The notes beneath the pieces are model-generated. The model searched no databases and was not told the origin of the DNA. It saw only the letters and a program-made list of their open reading frames with translations. A stretch of 64,000 bases of DNA. It comes from a virus. Lineage: Duplodnaviria > Caudoviricetes. The position numbers were made by a program, and so were the translations under genes. Positions 1,915 through 45,759 of this stretch are shown one piece after another. Where the stretch lies: IMG/VR virus record IMGVR_UViG_3300033121_001571; one strand, 5' to 3'. Each line of letters opens with the position of its first letter. Position 1 is the first letter of the stretch.

Positions 1915-2466
1915 TTATGATTTAACCCTAGACCAATAAAGTTCACTCTTGCTGTTTATTTGCGAGAATAGTTCTTTTCGTAAAGAGGGCCAATTCTTCA
2001 ACGAACGATACAACTTTATCAGCAATAACAATCTAGAAAAGTTCACATATAACCGATCTTTTCTAAAGACAAGAATTGAAATAATGCAAAAAATACTATA
2101 CAACGTAGCATACAAATACTCAAAAATTGAGAGTAGAAAAACTAAAGGAAGAACAAAAGGAAATGTGTAAACCAAAGAAAGTAATAAATTTTTAGGTTTT
2201 CTTTGAAAAAGAAGATCTTCATTACAATCAAAGTTTATTTCATAAAAGCTCATTCCATGAGGATCTCTAAAAAAATACACATTAAACGGTATCTCACCTT
2301 TTTCTGTGTACGAAAATCCACGTACACAATAGATACATTCATTTATCTTAGTGAACTTAAAAACAAAGATATCATCAAGTTCATTGTATTGTTGAATATA
2401 TTTTACATTCCTCCATGACTCAGAGATAACTGTAGAAATCATTTTAGTAAGGTTAAAAGTTGCCAT
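1915..2466 (-). CDS. Hypothetical membrane protein
   Basis: 183-aa ORF overlapping the PNK stop, with two hydrophobic segments (LLLSLVYTFPFVLPLVFLLSIF; LYSIFCIISILVF). Confidence 0.6.
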   Translation of the reverse strand: MATFNLTKMISTVISESWRNVKYIQQYNELDDIFVFKFTKINECIYCVRGFSYTEKGEIPFNVYFFRDPHGMSFYEINFDCNEDLLFQRKPKNLLLSLVYTFPFVLPLVFLLSIFEYLYATLYSIFCIISILVFRKDRLYVNFSRLLLLIKLYRSLKNWPSLRKELFSQINSKSELYWSRVKS

Positions 2467-3424
2467 AGTTCACCTGAAAACATGCAAGACCCAAAGATCT
2501 CCACAACTTAACAACAGAGTCTCTGTCATCAAGAACAAAATTGACATAATATTTTCCATATATGTTGTTGACGTACAGTTCCCTTTTTACAATATCATCA
2601 CTTCTAGAATCACCAGCAGTTCTCATGTACAAATCATAATGAATTGGCTTAGAATTTGGCAACAGACAGTGTGCATCAATAAATGCTTGTGTCTGTTGCC
2701 TGTATGTCTCTGGACGTGCAGAGACAAAGATTACTTTTGTGTTCTTGGTGTTAAAAGTAACAACTACGTCTCTAACTGGAGAGTTGATCTTATCTTTCAC
2801 GTGACACTCTGACGCATCATACGGTGATCGATCGCCTATAATTGCTAGAGTTCCGTCAAGATCACATATGATAGCATGGGGCAAAGAATTGTCTTGTTCA
2901 CTTTGATGAACTGGGATATTAGACACAAAGTTATGAACTTTGTCTTCAGGATAAGAAGATCCAACAGAGAATTGCTTGGCCATTCTTAATATGATTTCTG
3001 AGCTCATTGTCAACTCAGAAGAACACGATTCATTCCTCTTGTCATTTCTTTTGACACATTCATCAAGCGGAGTTCGTATCCACTTTTCCTCTACTGTCAA
3101 ACAAGAGAAATACTTGCTCATAGTCAAGACTTCTTTTACTGACTTTGATTTCAAATGTGTGTCATCACAAACAACATCAAAACCAGAATTTAACATATCT
3201 TTCAACAGAGATAACTTCATGTGTCTGACAAGAGATTCATACTTTTCATCTTTGATTGAAAAATCATACCATCGATTGTGAGGTCCGACCAACATATTTC
3301 TTATGTTGTCTCTGTTGAGTCTTAACATAGTCCCATTAGATTCAGCGACTAGTCTAGCAGCGTACGTAGACTTACCAGAGCCAGGTAAACCACGTAAAAC
3401 AACTATCTTTCTAGACGAATTCAT
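2453..3424 (-). CDS. pseT: Polynucleotide 5'-kinase/3'-phosphatase (T4 Pnkp-like)
   Basis: P-loop GLPGSGKST, NRDNIR and DDTHL in the kinase domain; HAD motifs CDLDGT, VSAR and LDDRDSV. Start moved to ATG 3424 (MNSSRK). Confidence 0.92.
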   Translation of the reverse strand: MNSSRKIVVLRGLPGSGKSTYAARLVAESNGTMLRLNRDNIRNMLVGPHNRWYDFSIKDEKYESLVRHMKLSLLKDMLNSGFDVVCDDTHLKSKSVKEVLTMSKYFSCLTVEEKWIRTPLDECVKRNDKRNESCSSELTMSSEIILRMAKQFSVGSSYPEDKVHNFVSNIPVHQSEQDNSLPHAIICDLDGTLAIIGDRSPYDASECHVKDKINSPVRDVVVTFNTKNTKVIFVSARPETYRQQTQAFIDAHCLLPNSKPIHYDLYMRTAGDSRSDDIVKRELYVNNIYGKYYVNFVLDDRDSVVKLWRSLGLACFQVNYGNF

Positions 3425-3428
3425 TCGT

Positions 3429-3459
3429 GGCCGAGAAGCGTACCTTATCGCCCTCGGCC
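3429..3459 (-). promoter_or_regulatory. GC-rich hairpin ending 4 nt upstream of the PNK start codon
   Basis: Minus strand reads GGCCGAGGGCG-ATAAGGTA-CGCTTCTCGGCC-ACGA-ATG. Confidence 0.6.
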
Positions 3460-3538
3460 TTCTGTTTATCAACAAGGATGTTGATTGTCCTACGTGAAGA
3501 GAAAATCACACGTTTAAGTCTGAAAGTCAGTCCTTAGA

Positions 3539-3627
3539 CTCGTTAGTTCTACCATTAAACTACCCAGGCACATGTAAGACTCTTTGAGTCTTGGGCCCGA
3601 GGTGAGAATTGAACTCACATTAACGAG
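3539..3627 (-). ncRNA. Circularly permuted tRNA-like domain 2 (YrlA-like topology)
   Basis: Minus strand: CTCGTT-AAT, T arm GTGAG-TTCAATT-CTCAC, acceptor 3' strand CTCGGGC then CCA, linker hairpin AAGACTC-AAA-GAGTCTT, acceptor 5' strand GCCTGGG, TA, D arm GTTT-AATGGTA-GAAC, T, AACGAG closing the stem. No anticodon loop. Confidence 0.8.
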
Positions 3628-3704
3628 CAATTCAGCAATCAGACGGTTGATTGATTTTTTTACTTCTCGTTCAGACAAATCAGTCTTTGGCAATAGACTG
3701 AGTT

Positions 3705-3798
3705 TGATTACCGCTATGCCTCTGCCAGTTGGGCTATCTCGGCAAGTTTTTTGCCAGCGCCGAGAGAAGGATTCGAACCTTCACTTTTCACAGTATCA
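3705..3798 (-). ncRNA. Circularly permuted tRNA-like domain 1 (YrlA-like topology)
   Basis: Minus strand: TGATACTGTG, T arm GAAGG-TTCGAAT-CCTTC, acceptor 3' strand TCTCGGC, 15-nt loop, acceptor 5' strand GCCGAGA (7/7 Watson-Crick), TA, D arm GCC-CAACTGGCAGA-GGC, then ATAGCGGTAATCA closing a bulged stem. Confidence 0.8.
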
Positions 3799-3854
3799 TT
3801 AGCGTTAGTCTTAAAGTAAGACTGCGCCTTCTGCAACTACGTTGCAGAAATCTT

Positions 3855-4583
3855 TTACTCGAAGATGTAGTTCAACATCTTCTCAGAAACTTTCTGTGCT
3901 TCAATCTCACGACTGTTGCACTCTTCTCTTGCAAATTTCACTGCTTTCTGCAGTTTCTCTACGCGAGAGAGCATATCAGCAACTTTTTGAGCAGGAAGGG
4001 CACCTGAAAACTTCACAGTCTTCCAGGTTCCAACAGTCTTATCTTCATAACCCTCCTTCACCTGAGCAGGATGCTTGTCTGTCGCAGGACTGAGAACGAG
4101 CGGAACAAAGACTTTCTTTGTTCTTGAAGTCTCAGCTGGTCGAGAGACATAAGCACCCACGTTCTTATCGAAGACCCAATCTTCTGAAGGATCAAGAACA
4201 GGAAGCTTGCTAACAAGCGTGTGAATATCTACAAGCTTCTTCTCAAGAAAAAGCAGATAAGTCACTGGTACGCTCTTTGCCAGAACTACATCACCCAGAG
4301 TAATATCAGCAGTCGCTGAGCAATTTGCATAGTCTTTGGTCGCAGTGATATCAAAAAACTCTACAAGAGTCTGTTGAATCTGCTTCAGAGCAGAACTGAC
4401 ATCAACTTGAACCTTAGTTGACTCAGAAGGAAGTTGTTCTCCAACCTCATCATTTGGACGATAAGTCCTAGAGATACCAGACAGCAACGCTGGCTTCTGC
4501 ACCTTCTGATAGAAGTCAGTCAGCGTGTTGTGAGCTTTTGCTTTTACTGATTTTTCAACTGCAACTACCTGACAAAGTCTCAT
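3855..4583 (-). CDS. Conserved uncharacterised protein (recalled as the DUF7873-type family), immediately upstream of the structured RNA
   Basis: Start moved to ATG 4583 (SD AGGTGA), giving 242 aa. MRLCQVVAVEK...KPALLSGISRTYRP...GEQLPSE...VPVTYLLFLEKKL...ATDKHPAQV...KFSGALP...KFAREECN resembles a hypothetical family I recall from actinobacteria and phages. Family name not verified. Confidence 0.75.
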   Translation of the reverse strand: MRLCQVVAVEKSVKAKAHNTLTDFYQKVQKPALLSGISRTYRPNDEVGEQLPSESTKVQVDVSSALKQIQQTLVEFFDITATKDYANCSATADITLGDVVLAKSVPVTYLLFLEKKLVDIHTLVSKLPVLDPSEDWVFDKNVGAYVSRPAETSRTKKVFVPLVLSPATDKHPAQVKEGYEDKTVGTWKTVKFSGALPAQKVADMLSRVEKLQKAVKFAREECNSREIEAQKVSEKMLNYIFE

Positions 4584-7609: not shown

Positions 7610-10123
7610 TCAACACTTACTGACGCCACACGCAGCACAAGTCATACAACCTTGCATGTACTGCAAGTCTTGACTACCACAATTTTCACAAGTTTTTTCA
7701 AGTCTGTATTTTGTTCCATCAGAAACATAACTCTTGCTTAAAACTTTTGCAAGTGCTGTTGAAAATGAAGTGATATCTGAATATTTGTCTTTTCTCAGTT
7801 GTTCAACAATGAAATTAACAGGAACTCCGTGTCGTAGAGACAAAGAAACCATTCTTGTTAAAGAACCATAAGAAGGATTGTCAAATAAGTTAACAATGTC
7901 TTTAAAAACAAGCAAGTCTTTCTCTGAATCATCAACGCTTATTTCTAAGTTATAAGTCACAACACCGTCAGAATTCTTTCCATTTTTAATGATAGTTCCT
8001 TTTTTGAATTTCTTTGGTACTTCAACGTGTTGTGACAAACCTGCAAACACTTCATATGGTTTATCGTTCAACAAACCCACAATTACCAAATACGTCTCTC
8101 CCTTCACGTTGACCCGAGATAAATCACACTTAAGCTCTTTTGGCCTCTTTTGTGCGTTGCCAACTAATATTCCTGAAGCATCCTGACGGTCAGAAGAACC
8201 GTTCTTTGACAAGTTCTCTGTAGAGACAAGCACACCGTTCTTAGACTCATCTCTGTACATGGTTATACCTTTACAACCTAGTTTCCATGCAAGCATATAA
8301 GTCTCTGAGATCTGTTCACTCGTTGCGCTCTTTGGAAGATTTATTGTCTTAGACAGACTGTGCTCACAGAACTGTTGTGCAGTAGCTTGGATCTTTACAG
8401 CTGAAAGGTGAGGAATTTCATTTGCTGTGAAACCCCAATAAGGAGATCTCTTGATATCTGTCTCACCAGTAATATCTTTCCAAAGCTGGAGTCCATGGTG
8501 AGTCACCATGTACTCTTGCCAAGAGTCGCCAGAGTCATCTACGAAATCAATCTTTTCTGCGGAGTCTTTATTGACTTTTCTTCTTCTCCCGTACTCCAAC
8601 AAAAACACAGGTTCAATACCACTAGTTGTCTGTGTCATCGTTGAAACAGTACCAGCAGGTGCAGTGGTAGTCAACGCAATATTTCTACGTCCATATGTAA
8701 CAAGATCTTGTATCTCTTCTGGTAAGAGATATTGCTTTAGTCTGTCTAAGTAAGGATGACTCTCTGCATATCGTTTAGGATCACAAACAGGAAACTTACC
8801 TCTTTCTTTTGCCATAAGAACAGATTCTCTGTGTGTAGCAAGTGCTAGTGTTTTATAGATCTCTTCAGTGAGTTTCAAAGACTCATCACTTCCATATCCA
8901 ATGTTAAGATACGCAAACACATCTCCAAGAGCAGTGATTCCAGTGCCAGTGCGGCGACCTTTCACACCAGCTTCTCTTATTCTTTCCCACAACCTTTCTT
9001 CTACAGAAGAAACTTCATCTGGCTCATTACTACAGTTAACTTTTTCGATGATTTTATTGACTGCTTCTAATTCTAAGTCTACGAGATCATCCATCAACCG
9101 TTGAGCTTTTCTAGCGTCTTTTTCAAAAGCATCAAAATCAAACTTTGCAGCAGACGTAAACGGATCAGAGACATATTTCACTAGATTGATCAACAACAGA
9201 CGACAAGAATCATACTTGGATAGACCAATTTCTCCGCACGGATTAGTCGATATTGTCTCAAATCCTTTATCACTGAAGATATCAGCCATAGAGTCTTTAG
9301 TCATTCTATCCCAGAAAAACACTCCAGGATCTCCACACTTCCACACTGCCAGCGCTAACTGATCCCAAATCTTTCTAGCTTTTACTGTCTTTGTCAGTTT
9401 AGCAGTTTCTGGTGTTGCAGAAACAGGCCAACGCAAAACAAAGTTATCATCATTTTCAACTGCTTGCATAAACTCATCAGTTAACCTGATTGATATGTTA
9501 GCTCCCGTGACATTTTCTTGATTTGTTTTGATATCAATAAATGTCTCTATTTCTGGATGATAACAAGAGATTGTCATCATAAGCGCGCCACGGCGACCGC
9601 CTTGACCAACTTCTCTAGTTGAATTTGAGTACCTCTTCATAAACCCAGCAATGCCATCTGTTGTCCTAGCGGCATTTGTGGTTGGCATTCCTTTTGGTCG
9701 AATGTTAGACAGATCAAACCCTACACCTCCTCGACGTTTGGAGATCTGAACTAATTGCTGGTCGGTCATACAAATCCCACCGTACGAATCTAGTGGAGAC
9801 GGAATGACAAAACAGTTAGAAAGTGATTGTATCTGGTTAGAGTTTCCTATACCAGACATTGGTGATCCTTGAGGAACAATTTTCCAGTTAGAAAACAACT
9901 GATAGATCTCATCATACGTCATTGGATTGGGATACATCGACTCAATACGCAAAAACTCTTTTGCAAGTCTTTTGTGCATGTCGTCTGGTGTCACTTCAAT
10001 GACATCATTTTCGATATTTCGAAGAGCATATTTTTCTACAAAAGCATCTGCTGCTAACTCATCACCCTTGAAATACTTTAACGATTCAGCCTTTGCAAAA
10101 GCGTCTAATTTTTTATTTGTCAT
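7610..10123 (-). CDS. nrdJ: Class II (adenosylcobalamin-dependent) ribonucleotide reductase
   Basis: SLSNCFV, RRGGVG, RRGALM, TNPCGEI, TTAPAGT, SKTINLP, KGITMYRD, and a C-terminal CENCG...CAACGVSKC Zn ribbon. No beta subunit nearby. Confidence 0.92.
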   Translation of the reverse strand: MTNKKLDAFAKAESLKYFKGDELAADAFVEKYALRNIENDVIEVTPDDMHKRLAKEFLRIESMYPNPMTYDEIYQLFSNWKIVPQGSPMSGIGNSNQIQSLSNCFVIPSPLDSYGGICMTDQQLVQISKRRGGVGFDLSNIRPKGMPTTNAARTTDGIAGFMKRYSNSTREVGQGGRRGALMMTISCYHPEIETFIDIKTNQENVTGANISIRLTDEFMQAVENDDNFVLRWPVSATPETAKLTKTVKARKIWDQLALAVWKCGDPGVFFWDRMTKDSMADIFSDKGFETISTNPCGEIGLSKYDSCRLLLINLVKYVSDPFTSAAKFDFDAFEKDARKAQRLMDDLVDLELEAVNKIIEKVNCSNEPDEVSSVEERLWERIREAGVKGRRTGTGITALGDVFAYLNIGYGSDESLKLTEEIYKTLALATHRESVLMAKERGKFPVCDPKRYAESHPYLDRLKQYLLPEEIQDLVTYGRRNIALTTTAPAGTVSTMTQTTSGIEPVFLLEYGRRRKVNKDSAEKIDFVDDSGDSWQEYMVTHHGLQLWKDITGETDIKRSPYWGFTANEIPHLSAVKIQATAQQFCEHSLSKTINLPKSATSEQISETYMLAWKLGCKGITMYRDESKNGVLVSTENLSKNGSSDRQDASGILVGNAQKRPKELKCDLSRVNVKGETYLVIVGLLNDKPYEVFAGLSQHVEVPKKFKKGTIIKNGKNSDGVVTYNLEISVDDSEKDLLVFKDIVNLFDNPSYGSLTRMVSLSLRHGVPVNFIVEQLRKDKYSDITSFSTALAKVLSKSYVSDGTKYRLEKTCENCGSQDLQYMQGCMTCAACGVSKC

Positions 10124-10166
10124 TTTTAACCTAAATTCACGAACTAAGACAGATTACATTCATAAA

Positions 10167-11573
10167 TCAATCTCTAGACTTGTTGCTAGTTGTCTCAGAA
10201 ACAATCTTTTCGCGTTGCAGTTCTTTCCACTTGCTTCTTAACGTTGCTTTGATATCTTCTTCATTTTCTTTATTTGCATCTGCAGGCGTACTAGACTCTC
10301 CCACAACAGTAAAAGAGGATCTACTTGTATCTATCTTGATGGGATAGACAAGACCGTCTCGACCTGATCGGTTTTTTGCTATGTAAATTCTACCAAGGCC
10401 TGTTGCTTTTTCGTGAACTCTTCTAGAGAGACCAAGAATAAAATCAGCAACGTGAGCTTTACCATATGCTTCAGACATATTTGTCATATCAATGATCTCT
10501 GAACTTGCACCCTCTTTGTTAGATTGAGAAGCAGTTGCAATTGGAAATCCCTTTTCATCAGCTAAGGAACGCAGTTCTTCATAGATCAACTTTAATTCAT
10601 GCCTTAATGAATCATACTCTCTAGTAGATCTCATGATGTCTGCATAGTCAACTATGACAAGATCGGGCTTAAATCCCTTTAATTCTAATCTTTCCATGTG
10701 TGCTCTTAACGTGAACACTGACGCAGAGTTAGATGGAAAGTGTTTAATAATGAGTTTCCCTAAGCTCATGTTCTTGTACTTATCCATAACTTGGTCTTTT
10801 GAATCGATAACATCGCTAGCATTGATGTCACACAAATTTGAATCATATCTGACACCTATCACGTGTTCTGCTAACTCAAACGTGTAGTGCAACACATTTT
10901 TTTGCATACGTAAAGCATTTGCACCAAGTGCAGTCAAAAAGTGTGATTTTCCCACGCCAGAACATGCAACAACTACAAACAGTTCACCTTTACCCATTCC
11001 ACCGTTAAGAATGTCTTTTTGATCTAACTCAGCTATTCCTGTTGGAATACAGTCTCTGCTTAATCTAGTAAATCTAGCTTCATAGTCAACAAAAAAATCA
11101 TGACCCATAGACGGGCTTGTACCAACTTGAGTGGCTTTCTTAATCTCTGAAACTATGCTGTCATATTTTTCAGAGTCAGAGTCAATCTTTGAAATTGCGT
11201 TCTCAATAGCCTTCTTAAGAGCTTGTTTACGACAAAATTCAATGCTTTTGTCTTTAACGTATGGTAAATCACCAGGATCTGGGTTTAGTTTAACTTTTTG
11301 TAAATAACTGATTATTTGTGTCTGGATATACTCATCTGCGTTAGTCTTCAACGCATCTTTAACAAGCGTTAACAAAATTGAAAATGAAGGAAACGTCTTG
11401 TATTTTTTTGCATGAGAAAAATACTTCTCTGTCAAAAATGACAGATGCTTTGATTCTATGTACTTTGGATCAAAGACTTCTAACATATCCTCAGCAAATT
11501 TCTGGTCTACTAAAAGCGCTTGAACAAACTTCTCTTGAAAAGAAGAACCAAAATCTGCAAACGAATTAATCAT
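10167..11573 (-). CDS. DnaB-like replicative helicase (T4 gp41-like)
   Basis: Walker A ACSGVGKS, YTFEL, IVDYADIM, TASQSNK, KNRSG. Confidence 0.92.
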   Translation of the reverse strand: MINSFADFGSSFQEKFVQALLVDQKFAEDMLEVFDPKYIESKHLSFLTEKYFSHAKKYKTFPSFSILLTLVKDALKTNADEYIQTQIISYLQKVKLNPDPGDLPYVKDKSIEFCRKQALKKAIENAISKIDSDSEKYDSIVSEIKKATQVGTSPSMGHDFFVDYEARFTRLSRDCIPTGIAELDQKDILNGGMGKGELFVVVACSGVGKSHFLTALGANALRMQKNVLHYTFELAEHVIGVRYDSNLCDINASDVIDSKDQVMDKYKNMSLGKLIIKHFPSNSASVFTLRAHMERLELKGFKPDLVIVDYADIMRSTREYDSLRHELKLIYEELRSLADEKGFPIATASQSNKEGASSEIIDMTNMSEAYGKAHVADFILGLSRRVHEKATGLGRIYIAKNRSGRDGLVYPIKIDTSRSSFTVVGESSTPADANKENEEDIKATLRSKWKELQREKIVSETTSNKSRD

Positions 11574-45439: not shown

Positions 45440-45443
45440 CCTG

Positions 45444-45759
45444 TGGAGTACTGCGGAATTGAACCGCAGTCCAAGATCTAGAATCACTCAAGTCATTCAC
45501 AGTCTTAGCTAGAGACTAGCGTTTTTTGCTCCAGTAAAGTCTTGAGCAGTGCACTTGATTTTAAAGAGAATCACTCTTTTTTTTGTGACATTCTGTTTCT
45601 AGGCTGTCACAACCCAAGACAAACTAAGCTGCTAGCTTAAGAGAGTCAATGCGGCCGTTATCGTTGGCAACTAACGTTCACTTGGATTTTAATCTGGTTC
45701 CTAGTGTACCAGCGACTGCACTCAAGTAACTTTCAACCCTGTCGAAACCTTTGTACCCC
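45444..45759 (-). ncRNA. ssrA: tmRNA, tag peptide ANDNGRIDSLKLAA
   Basis: 5' end GGGGTACAAAGGTTTCGAC; 3' end GACTGCGG-TTCAATT-CCGCAGTACTCC-A with a G3:U70 pair; tag ORF 45668-45624 follows TAGTT and ends LAA-stop. Confidence 0.95.

Follow-up and report, generated by a model that had tools for sequence, protein, structure and literature searches.

What occupies the gap between two genes of a large phage, when that gap is dense in hairpins and carries pieces of tRNA in permuted order? The question is raised by positions 3425-3854, minus strand, of a stretch of 64,000 nucleotides (hereafter the window) from the IMG/VR virus record IMGVR_UViG_3300033121_001571 (Duplodnaviria; Caudoviricetes). The interval is the exact intergenic gap between an upstream gene for a DUF7873 protein and a downstream gene for a T4-type polynucleotide kinase-phosphatase (Pnkp), and a first-pass annotation made from the sequence alone had read it as two tandem circularly permuted tRNA-like domains. 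Our results bear out this core observation and place it in a wider context. The minus strand of 3429-3828 is one structured RNA of about 400 nt, and it belongs to a large RNA family of phages and several bacterial phyla, whose members are encoded directly downstream of DUF7873 and on its strand. Rfam has no entry for this family, and in the published literature searched we found no mention of DUF7873 and nothing relevant on tandem or double tRNA-like RNAs or on permuted tRNA in phages; the DUF7873-adjacent RNA family is apparently undescribed.

When the sequence was read again, all the elements ascribed to the two permuted units were present on the minus strand, as follows (R1 is a covariance model described below).

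3705-3798 (-): tRNA-like unit 1; R1, 80.1 bits (a seed member, so partly by construction); Rfam YrlA model, 23.2 bits, E 0.036; pair counts
3798-3790 with 3714-3705 (-): stalk stem of unit 1, from pair counts
3782-3766 (-): T arm of unit 1, from sequence
3765-3759 (-): acceptor 3' strand of unit 1, from sequence
3758-3744 (-): acceptor-closing loop of unit 1, 15 nt, starting GCUG
3743-3737 (-): acceptor 5' strand of unit 1, from sequence
3734-3718 (-): D arm of unit 1, 3-bp stem and 11-nt loop with GG, tRNA-Leu-like
3539-3627 (-): tRNA-like unit 2; R1, 34.6 bits, E 4.3e-13 (outside the seed); pair counts; ARAGORN after re-permutation
3627-3622 with 3544-3539 (-): anticodon-position stem of unit 2, from sequence
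3618-3602 (-): T arm of unit 2, from sequence
3601-3595 (-): acceptor 3' strand of unit 2; two G-U pairs in the acceptor
3594-3570 (-): linker of unit 2, 25 nt, beginning CCA and containing a 6-bp hairpin
3569-3563 (-): acceptor 5' strand of unit 2, from sequence
3560-3546 (-): D arm of unit 2, 4-bp stem and 7-nt loop

Unit 1 also has U8-A9 between the acceptor and the D arm. As had been proposed, neither unit possesses an anticodon loop, the stem at the anticodon position continuing into a stalk. The CCA reported after the acceptor 3' strand of unit 2 is indeed there; no discriminator base precedes it, which corrects the earlier description.

Taken as a single sequence, a 432-nt stretch covering this region folds with a z-score of -5.15, none of 100 shuffles folding as well, and the minimum free energy (MFE) fold recovers both units. 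Standard searches pass over them: ARAGORN calls no tRNA in the native window, Rfam at gathering thresholds reports only a transfer-messenger RNA (tmRNA) elsewhere in the window and nothing in 3425-3854, and the Rfam tRNA model (RF00005) matches only the T arm of unit 1 (14.9 bits), a contiguous cloverleaf with an anticodon arm being absent. Once the units were cut out and their halves rejoined in the order of a tRNA, with CCA and an artificial anticodon loop added, ARAGORN called both window units tRNAs. The same treatment yielded tRNA calls in 58 of the 63 unit-1 and 62 of the 63 unit-2 constructs, against 0 of 126 controls.

Relatives were sought through the protein encoded next door. Phage loci gathered via DUF7873, seven and then eighty, show the same two permuted units just past the DUF7873 stop codon, and a strict pattern-and-pairing script finds both units in 61 loci (53 distinct sequences) and none on the opposite strand. 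The gap between the units spans 85-120 nt in the family (99 nt in the window), and the D arms are likewise constant, with a 3-bp stem and a loop of 10-11 nt in head 1 and a 4-bp stem and a loop of 7-8 nt in head 2 (window, 3 bp/11 nt and 4 bp/7 nt). The covariance model R1 (105 positions, 22 pairs) was seeded with 48 phage copies of unit 1; its matches lie just 3' of DUF7873 in 77 of the 80 phage loci, 158 of 159 of them on the strand of the gene. In the window, DUF7873 ends at 3855 and the RNA begins at about 3828 on the same strand, and units 1 and 2 are the only R1 matches in the 64 kb.

The same arrangement is found in bacteria. In a test set of 80 bacterial loci, none of them in the seed, R1 gives 142 matches in 79 loci, the exception being a contig that stops 227 nt past the gene; two matches, 70-350 nt after the DUF7873 gene, are found in most loci. 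The gene-RNA pair also occurs in bacterial chromosomes without phage context, and the protein is present in at least 536 bacterial species (one genome per species scanned), including many Streptomyces, Sorangium, Deinococcus radiomollis, Ktedonobacterales, Armatimonadota, Acidobacteriota and Chloroflexota. Neighbouring genes are otherwise not conserved in the bacterial loci, and a gene-free gap of 540-690 nt follows DUF7873. In one Ktedonobacterales locus (L124:4106-4935) the two-headed RNA is present twice in full, about 0.9 kb downstream of the gene.

The pairing scheme is maintained by compensatory change. In an R1-guided alignment of 138 independent bacterial copies, 93.9% of the cells are paired, compared with only 36-49% in slid controls, and the covariation score reaches 0.678 versus 0.19 for shuffles, a value attained by 0 of 500 of them. 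Pairing in the T, acceptor and D stems amounts to 98-100%, with a wide variety of pair types (at least 99.5% in the bacterial alignment). The stalk stem at the anticodon position is 81.6% paired in these copies, with many compensatory changes, a figure obtained only with the model-guided alignment, which is biased in the model's favour; plain MAFFT alignments put the stems at this position out of register (51.5% and 42.5% paired). Covariation in related phages, suggested earlier as a check, is therefore present, since the helices co-vary and one pairing scheme runs through phage and bacterial copies. Taken together, the fold z-score, R1, ARAGORN and covariation place the tandem permuted domains far beyond chance. 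In addition, the conserved spacing between units and the conserved helices that bridge their flanks support a single multi-domain RNA, which was one of the two forms initially considered, the other being a pair of processed small RNAs.

Beyond the heads, the RNA comprises a series of helices, loops and repeats; it has two arms, in each of which a head tops a stalk of helices interrupted by conserved internal loops.

3829-3849 (-): 9-bp hairpin right after the DUF7873 stop codon, from sequence and MFE fold
3799-3828 (-): 5' strand of helix P1, GGCG (3828-3825), and block A, four tandem NNYUNA hexamers (3823-3799), from compensatory changes and motif counts
3679-3704 (-): block B, further YUNA motifs and the 3' strand of P1, UGCC (3692-3689), from comparison of relatives
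3628-3669 (-): 5' strands of the unit-2 stalk, Pc 3669-3663, Pb 3657-3652 and Pa 3644-3639
3651-3645 (-): conserved loop AUCAACC between Pb and Pa; family form AUCRACC
3638-3628 (-): loop with CUGAA, between Pa and the inner stem
3493-3538 (-): 3' strands of the unit-2 stalk, Pa 3523-3518, Pb 3508-3503 and Pc 3499-3493
3538-3526 (-): conserved loop UCUAAGGACUGAC, 3' side of the unit-2 stalk
3517-3511 (-): conserved UUAAACG between Pa and Pb, 3' side
3468-3485 (-): 7-bp hairpin ATCAACA/TGTTGAT, from sequence and MFE fold; variable in relatives
3429-3459 (-): terminal hairpin, from sequence and MFE fold; apical loop AAGGUAC, no U run, Pnkp start codon 4 nt on

The stalk of unit 2 is the best supported of these. 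In 37 sequences Pa (3644-3639 with 3523-3518) is 87.0% paired and Pb (3657-3652 with 3508-3503) 97.7% paired, all 15 pairs covary, and RNAalifold predicts both helices unaided, neither having been used in choosing the sequences; Pc is paired in part of the family only (57%). Opposite the CUGAA strand, between Pa and the inner stem, lies the conserved family loop UCUAAGGACUGA. The window has Pa and Pb, the AUCRACC, UUAAACG and UCUAAGGACUGA loops and four hexamers. Helix P1 encloses unit 1 and its stem, and its strands change together among relatives when inspected by eye (GGAGCG/CGCUCC, GGAGUG/CACUCC, AGGGA/UCCCU, AGAGAA/UUCUCU). RNAalifold returned no consensus on a MAFFT alignment of the unit 1 flanks, so that P1 is backed by these inspected compensatory changes only. 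A G+C-rich hairpin follows the DUF7873 stop codon in relatives too, with a different sequence, and the terminal hairpin carries GGAUA in its apical loop in most of them, often followed by a U run (an intrinsic terminator).

Just inside P1 and 5' of head 1, family members carry three or four tandem NNYUNA hexamers (block A), with more copies after unit 1 and in the stalk loop of unit 2. From one YUNA motif to the next the distance is 6 nt in 127 of 191 cases, and RRYUSA (RRYTSA in DNA) occurs 4.9 times per RNA, compared with 1.2 in shuffles and 1.95 for the reverse complement. In the window and its closest relatives the hexamer motifs pair locally; in distant members they are direct repeats unable to pair. 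The hairpins that had been described around the units are present to the letter, but several of them (AGTCT/AGACT, CAATCA/TGATTG) are better read, from the relatives, as tandem hexamers and strands of long-range helices. In one frame, block A (3799-3823, minus strand, and its equivalent in relatives) reads YUN-ANN, that is, a Leu/Phe codon followed by an A-initial codon, beside a tRNA-Leu-like head. This may be mere coincidence, a repeat to which a protein binds, or something codon-like. Two readings of the block, as a tmRNA-like tag or as a repeat that codes (YUN-ANN, Leu-Lys/Arg-like), were considered and rejected, there being no start, stop or resume codon and no tmRNA features; the NNYUNA pattern alone may still be compatible with coding.

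As regards the heads themselves, head 1 is tRNA-Leu-like in its D arm and head 2 has a generic class I shape. The segment from U8 to position 26 (D arm) of unit 1 finds its best match among the tRNA-Leu genes of the same loci in 56.5 of 63 family members, and that of unit 2 points to no clear tRNA type. The loops that close the acceptors range from 5 to 224 nt, many being tight at 6-7 nt. They begin with a discriminator-like base (mostly A in unit 1, U or G in unit 2) and then C, the start being exactly NCCA in 30 of 87 unit-1 and 23 of 87 unit-2 copies; they often end in U (-1), and the +1 base is G in most copies. One viral record (IMGVR_UViG_3300036820_000026; L035:2372-2932) has a gene for a 186-aa HNH homing endonuclease inside the acceptor-closing loop of unit 1 (Pfam HNH 3.2e-15 plus a homing-endonuclease repeat), with the acceptor strands CCGGGGT and ACCCCGG about 610 nt apart. 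A loop that tolerates a whole gene must therefore be dispensable or removed. Some phage copies (L038 and L044) carry, about 350-450 nt after the gene, an extra element past unit 2 that resembles an anticodon arm followed by a T arm; unit 1 of L038 lacks the T arm and acceptor stem, which leaves that RNA single-headed.

The closest known architecture is that of YrlA (Y RNA-like A, RF02553), the Ro60/Rsr-bound Y RNA of bacteria and mycobacteriophage (Chen et al. 2014, PMC4201824; Wang et al. 2018, bioRxiv 10.1101/312249). The succession of T arm, closed acceptor and D arm had been recognised as a YrlA-type permuted tRNA mimic, and this holds: with the Rfam models at permissive thresholds, YrlA on unit 1 (3691-3812) is the best match in the region, although it remains below the gathering score of 69, and unit 2 is not reported by that model. 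Both kinds of RNA have a permuted tRNA-like domain with a T arm, a loop-closed acceptor and a D arm, set on a flank-formed stem at the anticodon-stem position; they share NCCA-like remnants and a plausible RNase P site, occur in bacteria and phages, and are encoded next to a presumed protein partner. They differ in that the DUF7873-linked RNA has two heads within about 400 nt, whereas YrlA RNAs measure 80-130 nt; in that the neighbour of the window RNA is DUF7873 and not a TROVE protein; and in that the DUF7873-linked RNA has stalk loops of its own (AUCRACC, UUAAACG, UCUAAGGACUGA) and the hexamer block.

Membership of the YrlA or Y RNA family is another matter, and it finds no support. Published criteria for YrlA are a Ro60 gene within 4 kb on the same strand and a GNCGAA motif; the motif, GNCGAAN0-1G near the 5' end, is the presumed Ro60 contact (PMC4201824). 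In the window the match stands at 23.2 bits as against 69, relatives score 27-49.6 bits with the Rfam model, all below the gathering score, and no TROVE/Ro60 gene is found among the 40 open reading frames (ORFs) of at least 150 aa scanned in the 64-kb window, nor in five related phage records, one of them 98% complete. The loose likeness to the Ro-binding motif noted before unit 2 does not extend to a true GNCGAA, which is absent from the minus strand of 3425-3854; in this family its counterpart is CUGAA. The DUF7873-linked RNA is thus a YrlA-type tRNA mimic in architecture and not a YrlA member as defined.

Two other systems invite comparison. Two-piece tmRNA genes also encode the acceptor 5' strand after the T arm and the CCA-bearing acceptor 3' strand, and a loop that could be excised lies between; the window RNA differs from them in its full D arm, and it lacks a tag reading frame, pseudoknots and the G3-U70 pair, C-G being the 3-70 pair of both units. 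The Rfam tmRNA model gives no match in 3000-4300 at E up to 10, and the window phage already has a standard tmRNA, encoded by a complete one-piece gene at 45441-45759 (-) (Rfam 79.8 bits; ARAGORN tag peptide ANDNGRIDSLKLAA). The permuted tRNA genes of Cyanidioschyzon-type algae likewise encode the 3' half of a tRNA before the 5' half, but they keep the anticodon arm and mature to working tRNAs via a circular intermediate, whereas the window RNA has no anticodon loop and its stem continues into a long conserved stalk.

The presumed partner is itself highly conserved. DUF7873 has 7090 relatives at E <= 1e-5, nearly all 243-244 aa long and 55-74% identical. Between phage and bacterial members, conservation reaches at least 90% at 79 positions, among them 15 acidic and 13 basic residues, two His and one Cys; isoelectric points run from 5.7 to 8.8. 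A confident AlphaFold model (pLDDT 82.6) consists of long helices and a long beta hairpin. Comparison of this model with the PDB by Foldseek returned nothing at E <= 0.001, a wide structural search gave generic helical matches only (Z <= 8.7), the ESM Atlas returned only DUF7873 itself, a sequence profile search of the PDB gave nothing below E 0.1, and PHROGs has no family for it. Fused forms are limited to one longer protein, which is weak evidence that DUF7873 is a free-standing protein. Model confidence supports a predicted symmetric homodimer: the complex test scored 0.70 (best control 0.00), and among proteins of solved structure 20 of 30 pairs and 1 of 23 single chains attained that score. 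The runs agreed in at least 97% of contacts, with a partner pLDDT of at least 87. Such a dimer, set against an RNA with two heads, would make an attractive picture.

The genes on either side of the RNA are the following.

3855-4583 (-): DUF7873 gene, 242 aa from the homologue-matching ATG; Pfam PF25283, E 5.6e-99
2453-3424 (-): Pnkp gene, T4-type polynucleotide kinase-phosphatase; Pfam HAD_PNKP 3.2e-46 and AAA_33; PHROG 505, 3.2e-81

The source of the window is a T4-like myovirus that encodes a gp23-type capsid protein, a gp20 portal, a large terminase and a tail sheath, together with baseplate proteins, RecA, ribonucleotide reductase and DnaB. The longest ORF of DUF7873 reaches 4688, the start codon having been set by alignment with homologues, and a promoter-like TTGTCC-17-TATACT lies at 4628-4600, 5' of that start. 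Hsp20-like and MazG-like genes are found upstream of DUF7873; beyond Pnkp, downstream, come an ORF of 183 aa with no assigned function, a metallophosphoesterase and a DNA methylase. Pnkp adjoins the module in only 4 distinct related contigs among 87 viral loci and in none of 83 bacterial loci. It was considered as a conserved third component and rejected on this ground; it is a lineage-specific neighbour and not part of the module, and it fits a theme of tRNA damage and repair (PMC7824862). tRNA genes lie within the flanks in 39 of the 87 phage loci. PADLOC matched none of the local proteins, DUF7873 included, and a nucleotide search of the phage GenBank collection with the 3425-3854 region gave no match. 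On a bacterial metagenome contig (L175:1177-3263 and 9407-10687), the gene-RNA pair lies within a few kb of genes for a THUMP-like methyltransferase, a metallophosphoesterase and a nucleotidyltransferase of the PolyA_pol/CCA-adding type.

The reading that we favour, with a probability of roughly 60%, is that DUF7873 and the RNA form a particle that presents tRNA elbows, much as Ro60 and YrlA do, with a different partner protein. The RNA would be co-transcribed with the DUF7873 gene, or transcribed beside it, and would assemble with the homodimer into a ribonucleoprotein (RNP); its two elbows could then be offered to enzymes that recognise the shape of tRNA, namely RNase P, CCA-adding, modification and repair enzymes or tRNA-targeting nucleases, so that the particle would work in the manner of Ro60-YrlA. 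In the window phage the module shares a block with Pnkp and a metallophosphoesterase; its most likely use there would for this reason be in conflicts over tRNA damage and repair during infection, the link being specific to the lineage. In this scheme we infer binding from adjacency and function from shape.

Several observations weigh against this reading. Gene adjacency alone is no proof of binding, and that of Pnkp is confined to close relatives. DUF7873 has neither a recognisable RNA-binding fold nor a strong basic character, and the many acidic and His residues that it conserves would suit an enzyme just as well. Three phage loci have no RNA within 1.5 kb of DUF7873, and in one Ktedonobacter locus (L157:3395-3652) the RNA lies on the strand opposite the gene, from which it follows that the RNA can have its own promoter. 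Finally, Ro60 could still be involved. A TROVE gene is present elsewhere in the genome, more than 100 kb off or on another contig, in 8 of 11 bacterial DUF7873 carriers tested, and among 151 genomes of one class TROVE occurs in 4 of 7 carriers versus 13 of 144 non-carriers (Fisher p = 0.003, uncorrected for relatedness).

These last figures are the main argument for a functional Y RNA, that is, a two-headed RNA that binds Ro60/Rsr (for the phage, that of its host) and links it to an effector, DUF7873 being accessory or unrelated. Such a role would suit the YrlA-type permuted core and the Rfam matches of 23-50 bits, tandem Y RNAs beside Ro60 are known (PMC4201824), and R1 cross-matches genuine Ro60-adjacent RNAs at 36-44 bits. 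Yet the RNA strand has no GNCGAA and every match stays below 69 bits; TROVE is never adjacent, the published distance being at most 4 kb on the same strand (PMC4201824), and it is absent from 3 of the 11 carriers and from the 98%-complete phage record. Moreover, 3 of 4 TROVE loci inspected have a YrlA-like RNA of their own directly beside the TROVE gene and away from DUF7873, which indicates that two systems coexist as separate loci, and the co-occurrence may reflect shared ancestry of large actinomycete genomes. We therefore regard a Y RNA function as rather unlikely. In a Streptomyces locus (L171:4600-5000), two tandem YrlA-like RNAs stand directly before the Ro60 gene and score 35 bits, below the Rfam YrlA threshold; a GGUGCGMAGGC...CUACUUC stem motif, repeated ahead of each of them, is missing from the window RNA. 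The Rfam YrlA model seems to under-detect actinomycete Y RNAs.

A second possibility is that the RNA by itself serves as a tRNA decoy that cannot be cleaved, soaking up host tRNA-targeting nucleases or tRNA-binding defence proteins alongside Pnkp, with DUF7873 only stabilising or processing it. Each head is an entire tRNA elbow that lacks the anticodon loop, where anticodon nucleases cleave; the module stands beside Pnkp and a metallophosphoesterase in the window and four related contigs, many phage loci are flanked by tRNA genes, and tRNA repair and tRNA supply by phages are established means of counter-defence (PMC7824862). Against a decoy, the pair is chromosomal in hundreds of bacterial species without phage or defence context, there is no PADLOC match nearby, and the stalk loops and DUF7873 are so extremely conserved that they point to a specific partner and not to a passive sponge; we consider a decoy distinctly unlikely. 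The RNA might instead be a precursor, cut by RNase P at the +1 position of the acceptor 5' strands (3743 and 3569) and trimmed in its loops to CCA, yielding tRNA-like molecules in several pieces of which the Leu-like head could be charged. Cleavage at these two positions, an idea drawn from the letters, would be consistent with the family's +1 G, -1 U and NCCA-like loop starts (N-C-C/U-N, exact in a quarter to a third of copies), and loops of such varied length, one with an HNH gene, would be tolerated most easily if they were removed. In Mycobacterium smegmatis, RNase P cleaves YrlA, to which CCA is added (PMC4201824). Head 1 has a D arm of tRNA-Leu type and a discriminator that is mostly A. 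Leucyl-tRNA synthetase does not read the anticodon. Most copies, however, lack an exact CCA, many loops are tight, unit 1 of the window starts its loop with GCUG and the CCA of unit 2 has no discriminator, and the G3-U70 pair, tag reading frame and tmRNA-model match are all wanting in a phage that has a normal tmRNA elsewhere; a precursor is thus very improbable. As for relics of ordinary tRNA genes, decayed, rearranged or misassembled and without function, the T and D arms are close in sequence to those of real tRNAs. This explanation, which the first-pass annotation had named as what would overturn its reading, is refuted and its probability practically nil, since about 150 independent loci of phages and several bacterial phyla share the permuted order, the spacing and the flanking helices and show compensatory changes.

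Coming back to the particle of DUF7873 and tRNA-mimicking RNA, a more specific proposal can be made, which we hold only tentatively, as possible and short of even odds: that the two constitute an unrecognised, Ro60-independent RNP of bacteria and phages, in which a symmetric dimer would hold the tRNA-Leu-like and class I heads, the hexamers and stalk loops would serve as binding sites, and the particle would engage the machinery that recognises tRNA in a way unlike any known system.

If the pairing of gene and RNA is functional, it would represent a second class of tRNA-mimicking RNP beside that of Ro60 and Y RNA. Such an RNP would be present in hundreds of bacterial species, cultivable Streptomyces, Sorangium and Deinococcus among them, and in many large phages, and it would give a function to a highly conserved orphan protein family of some 7000 relatives. 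In the window phage, DUF7873, the RNA, Pnkp and the phosphoesterase likely make up a block for RNA repair or tRNA conflict. More broadly, the system would offer a tractable way to learn what tRNA-shaped decoys and scaffolds do in cells and during infection.

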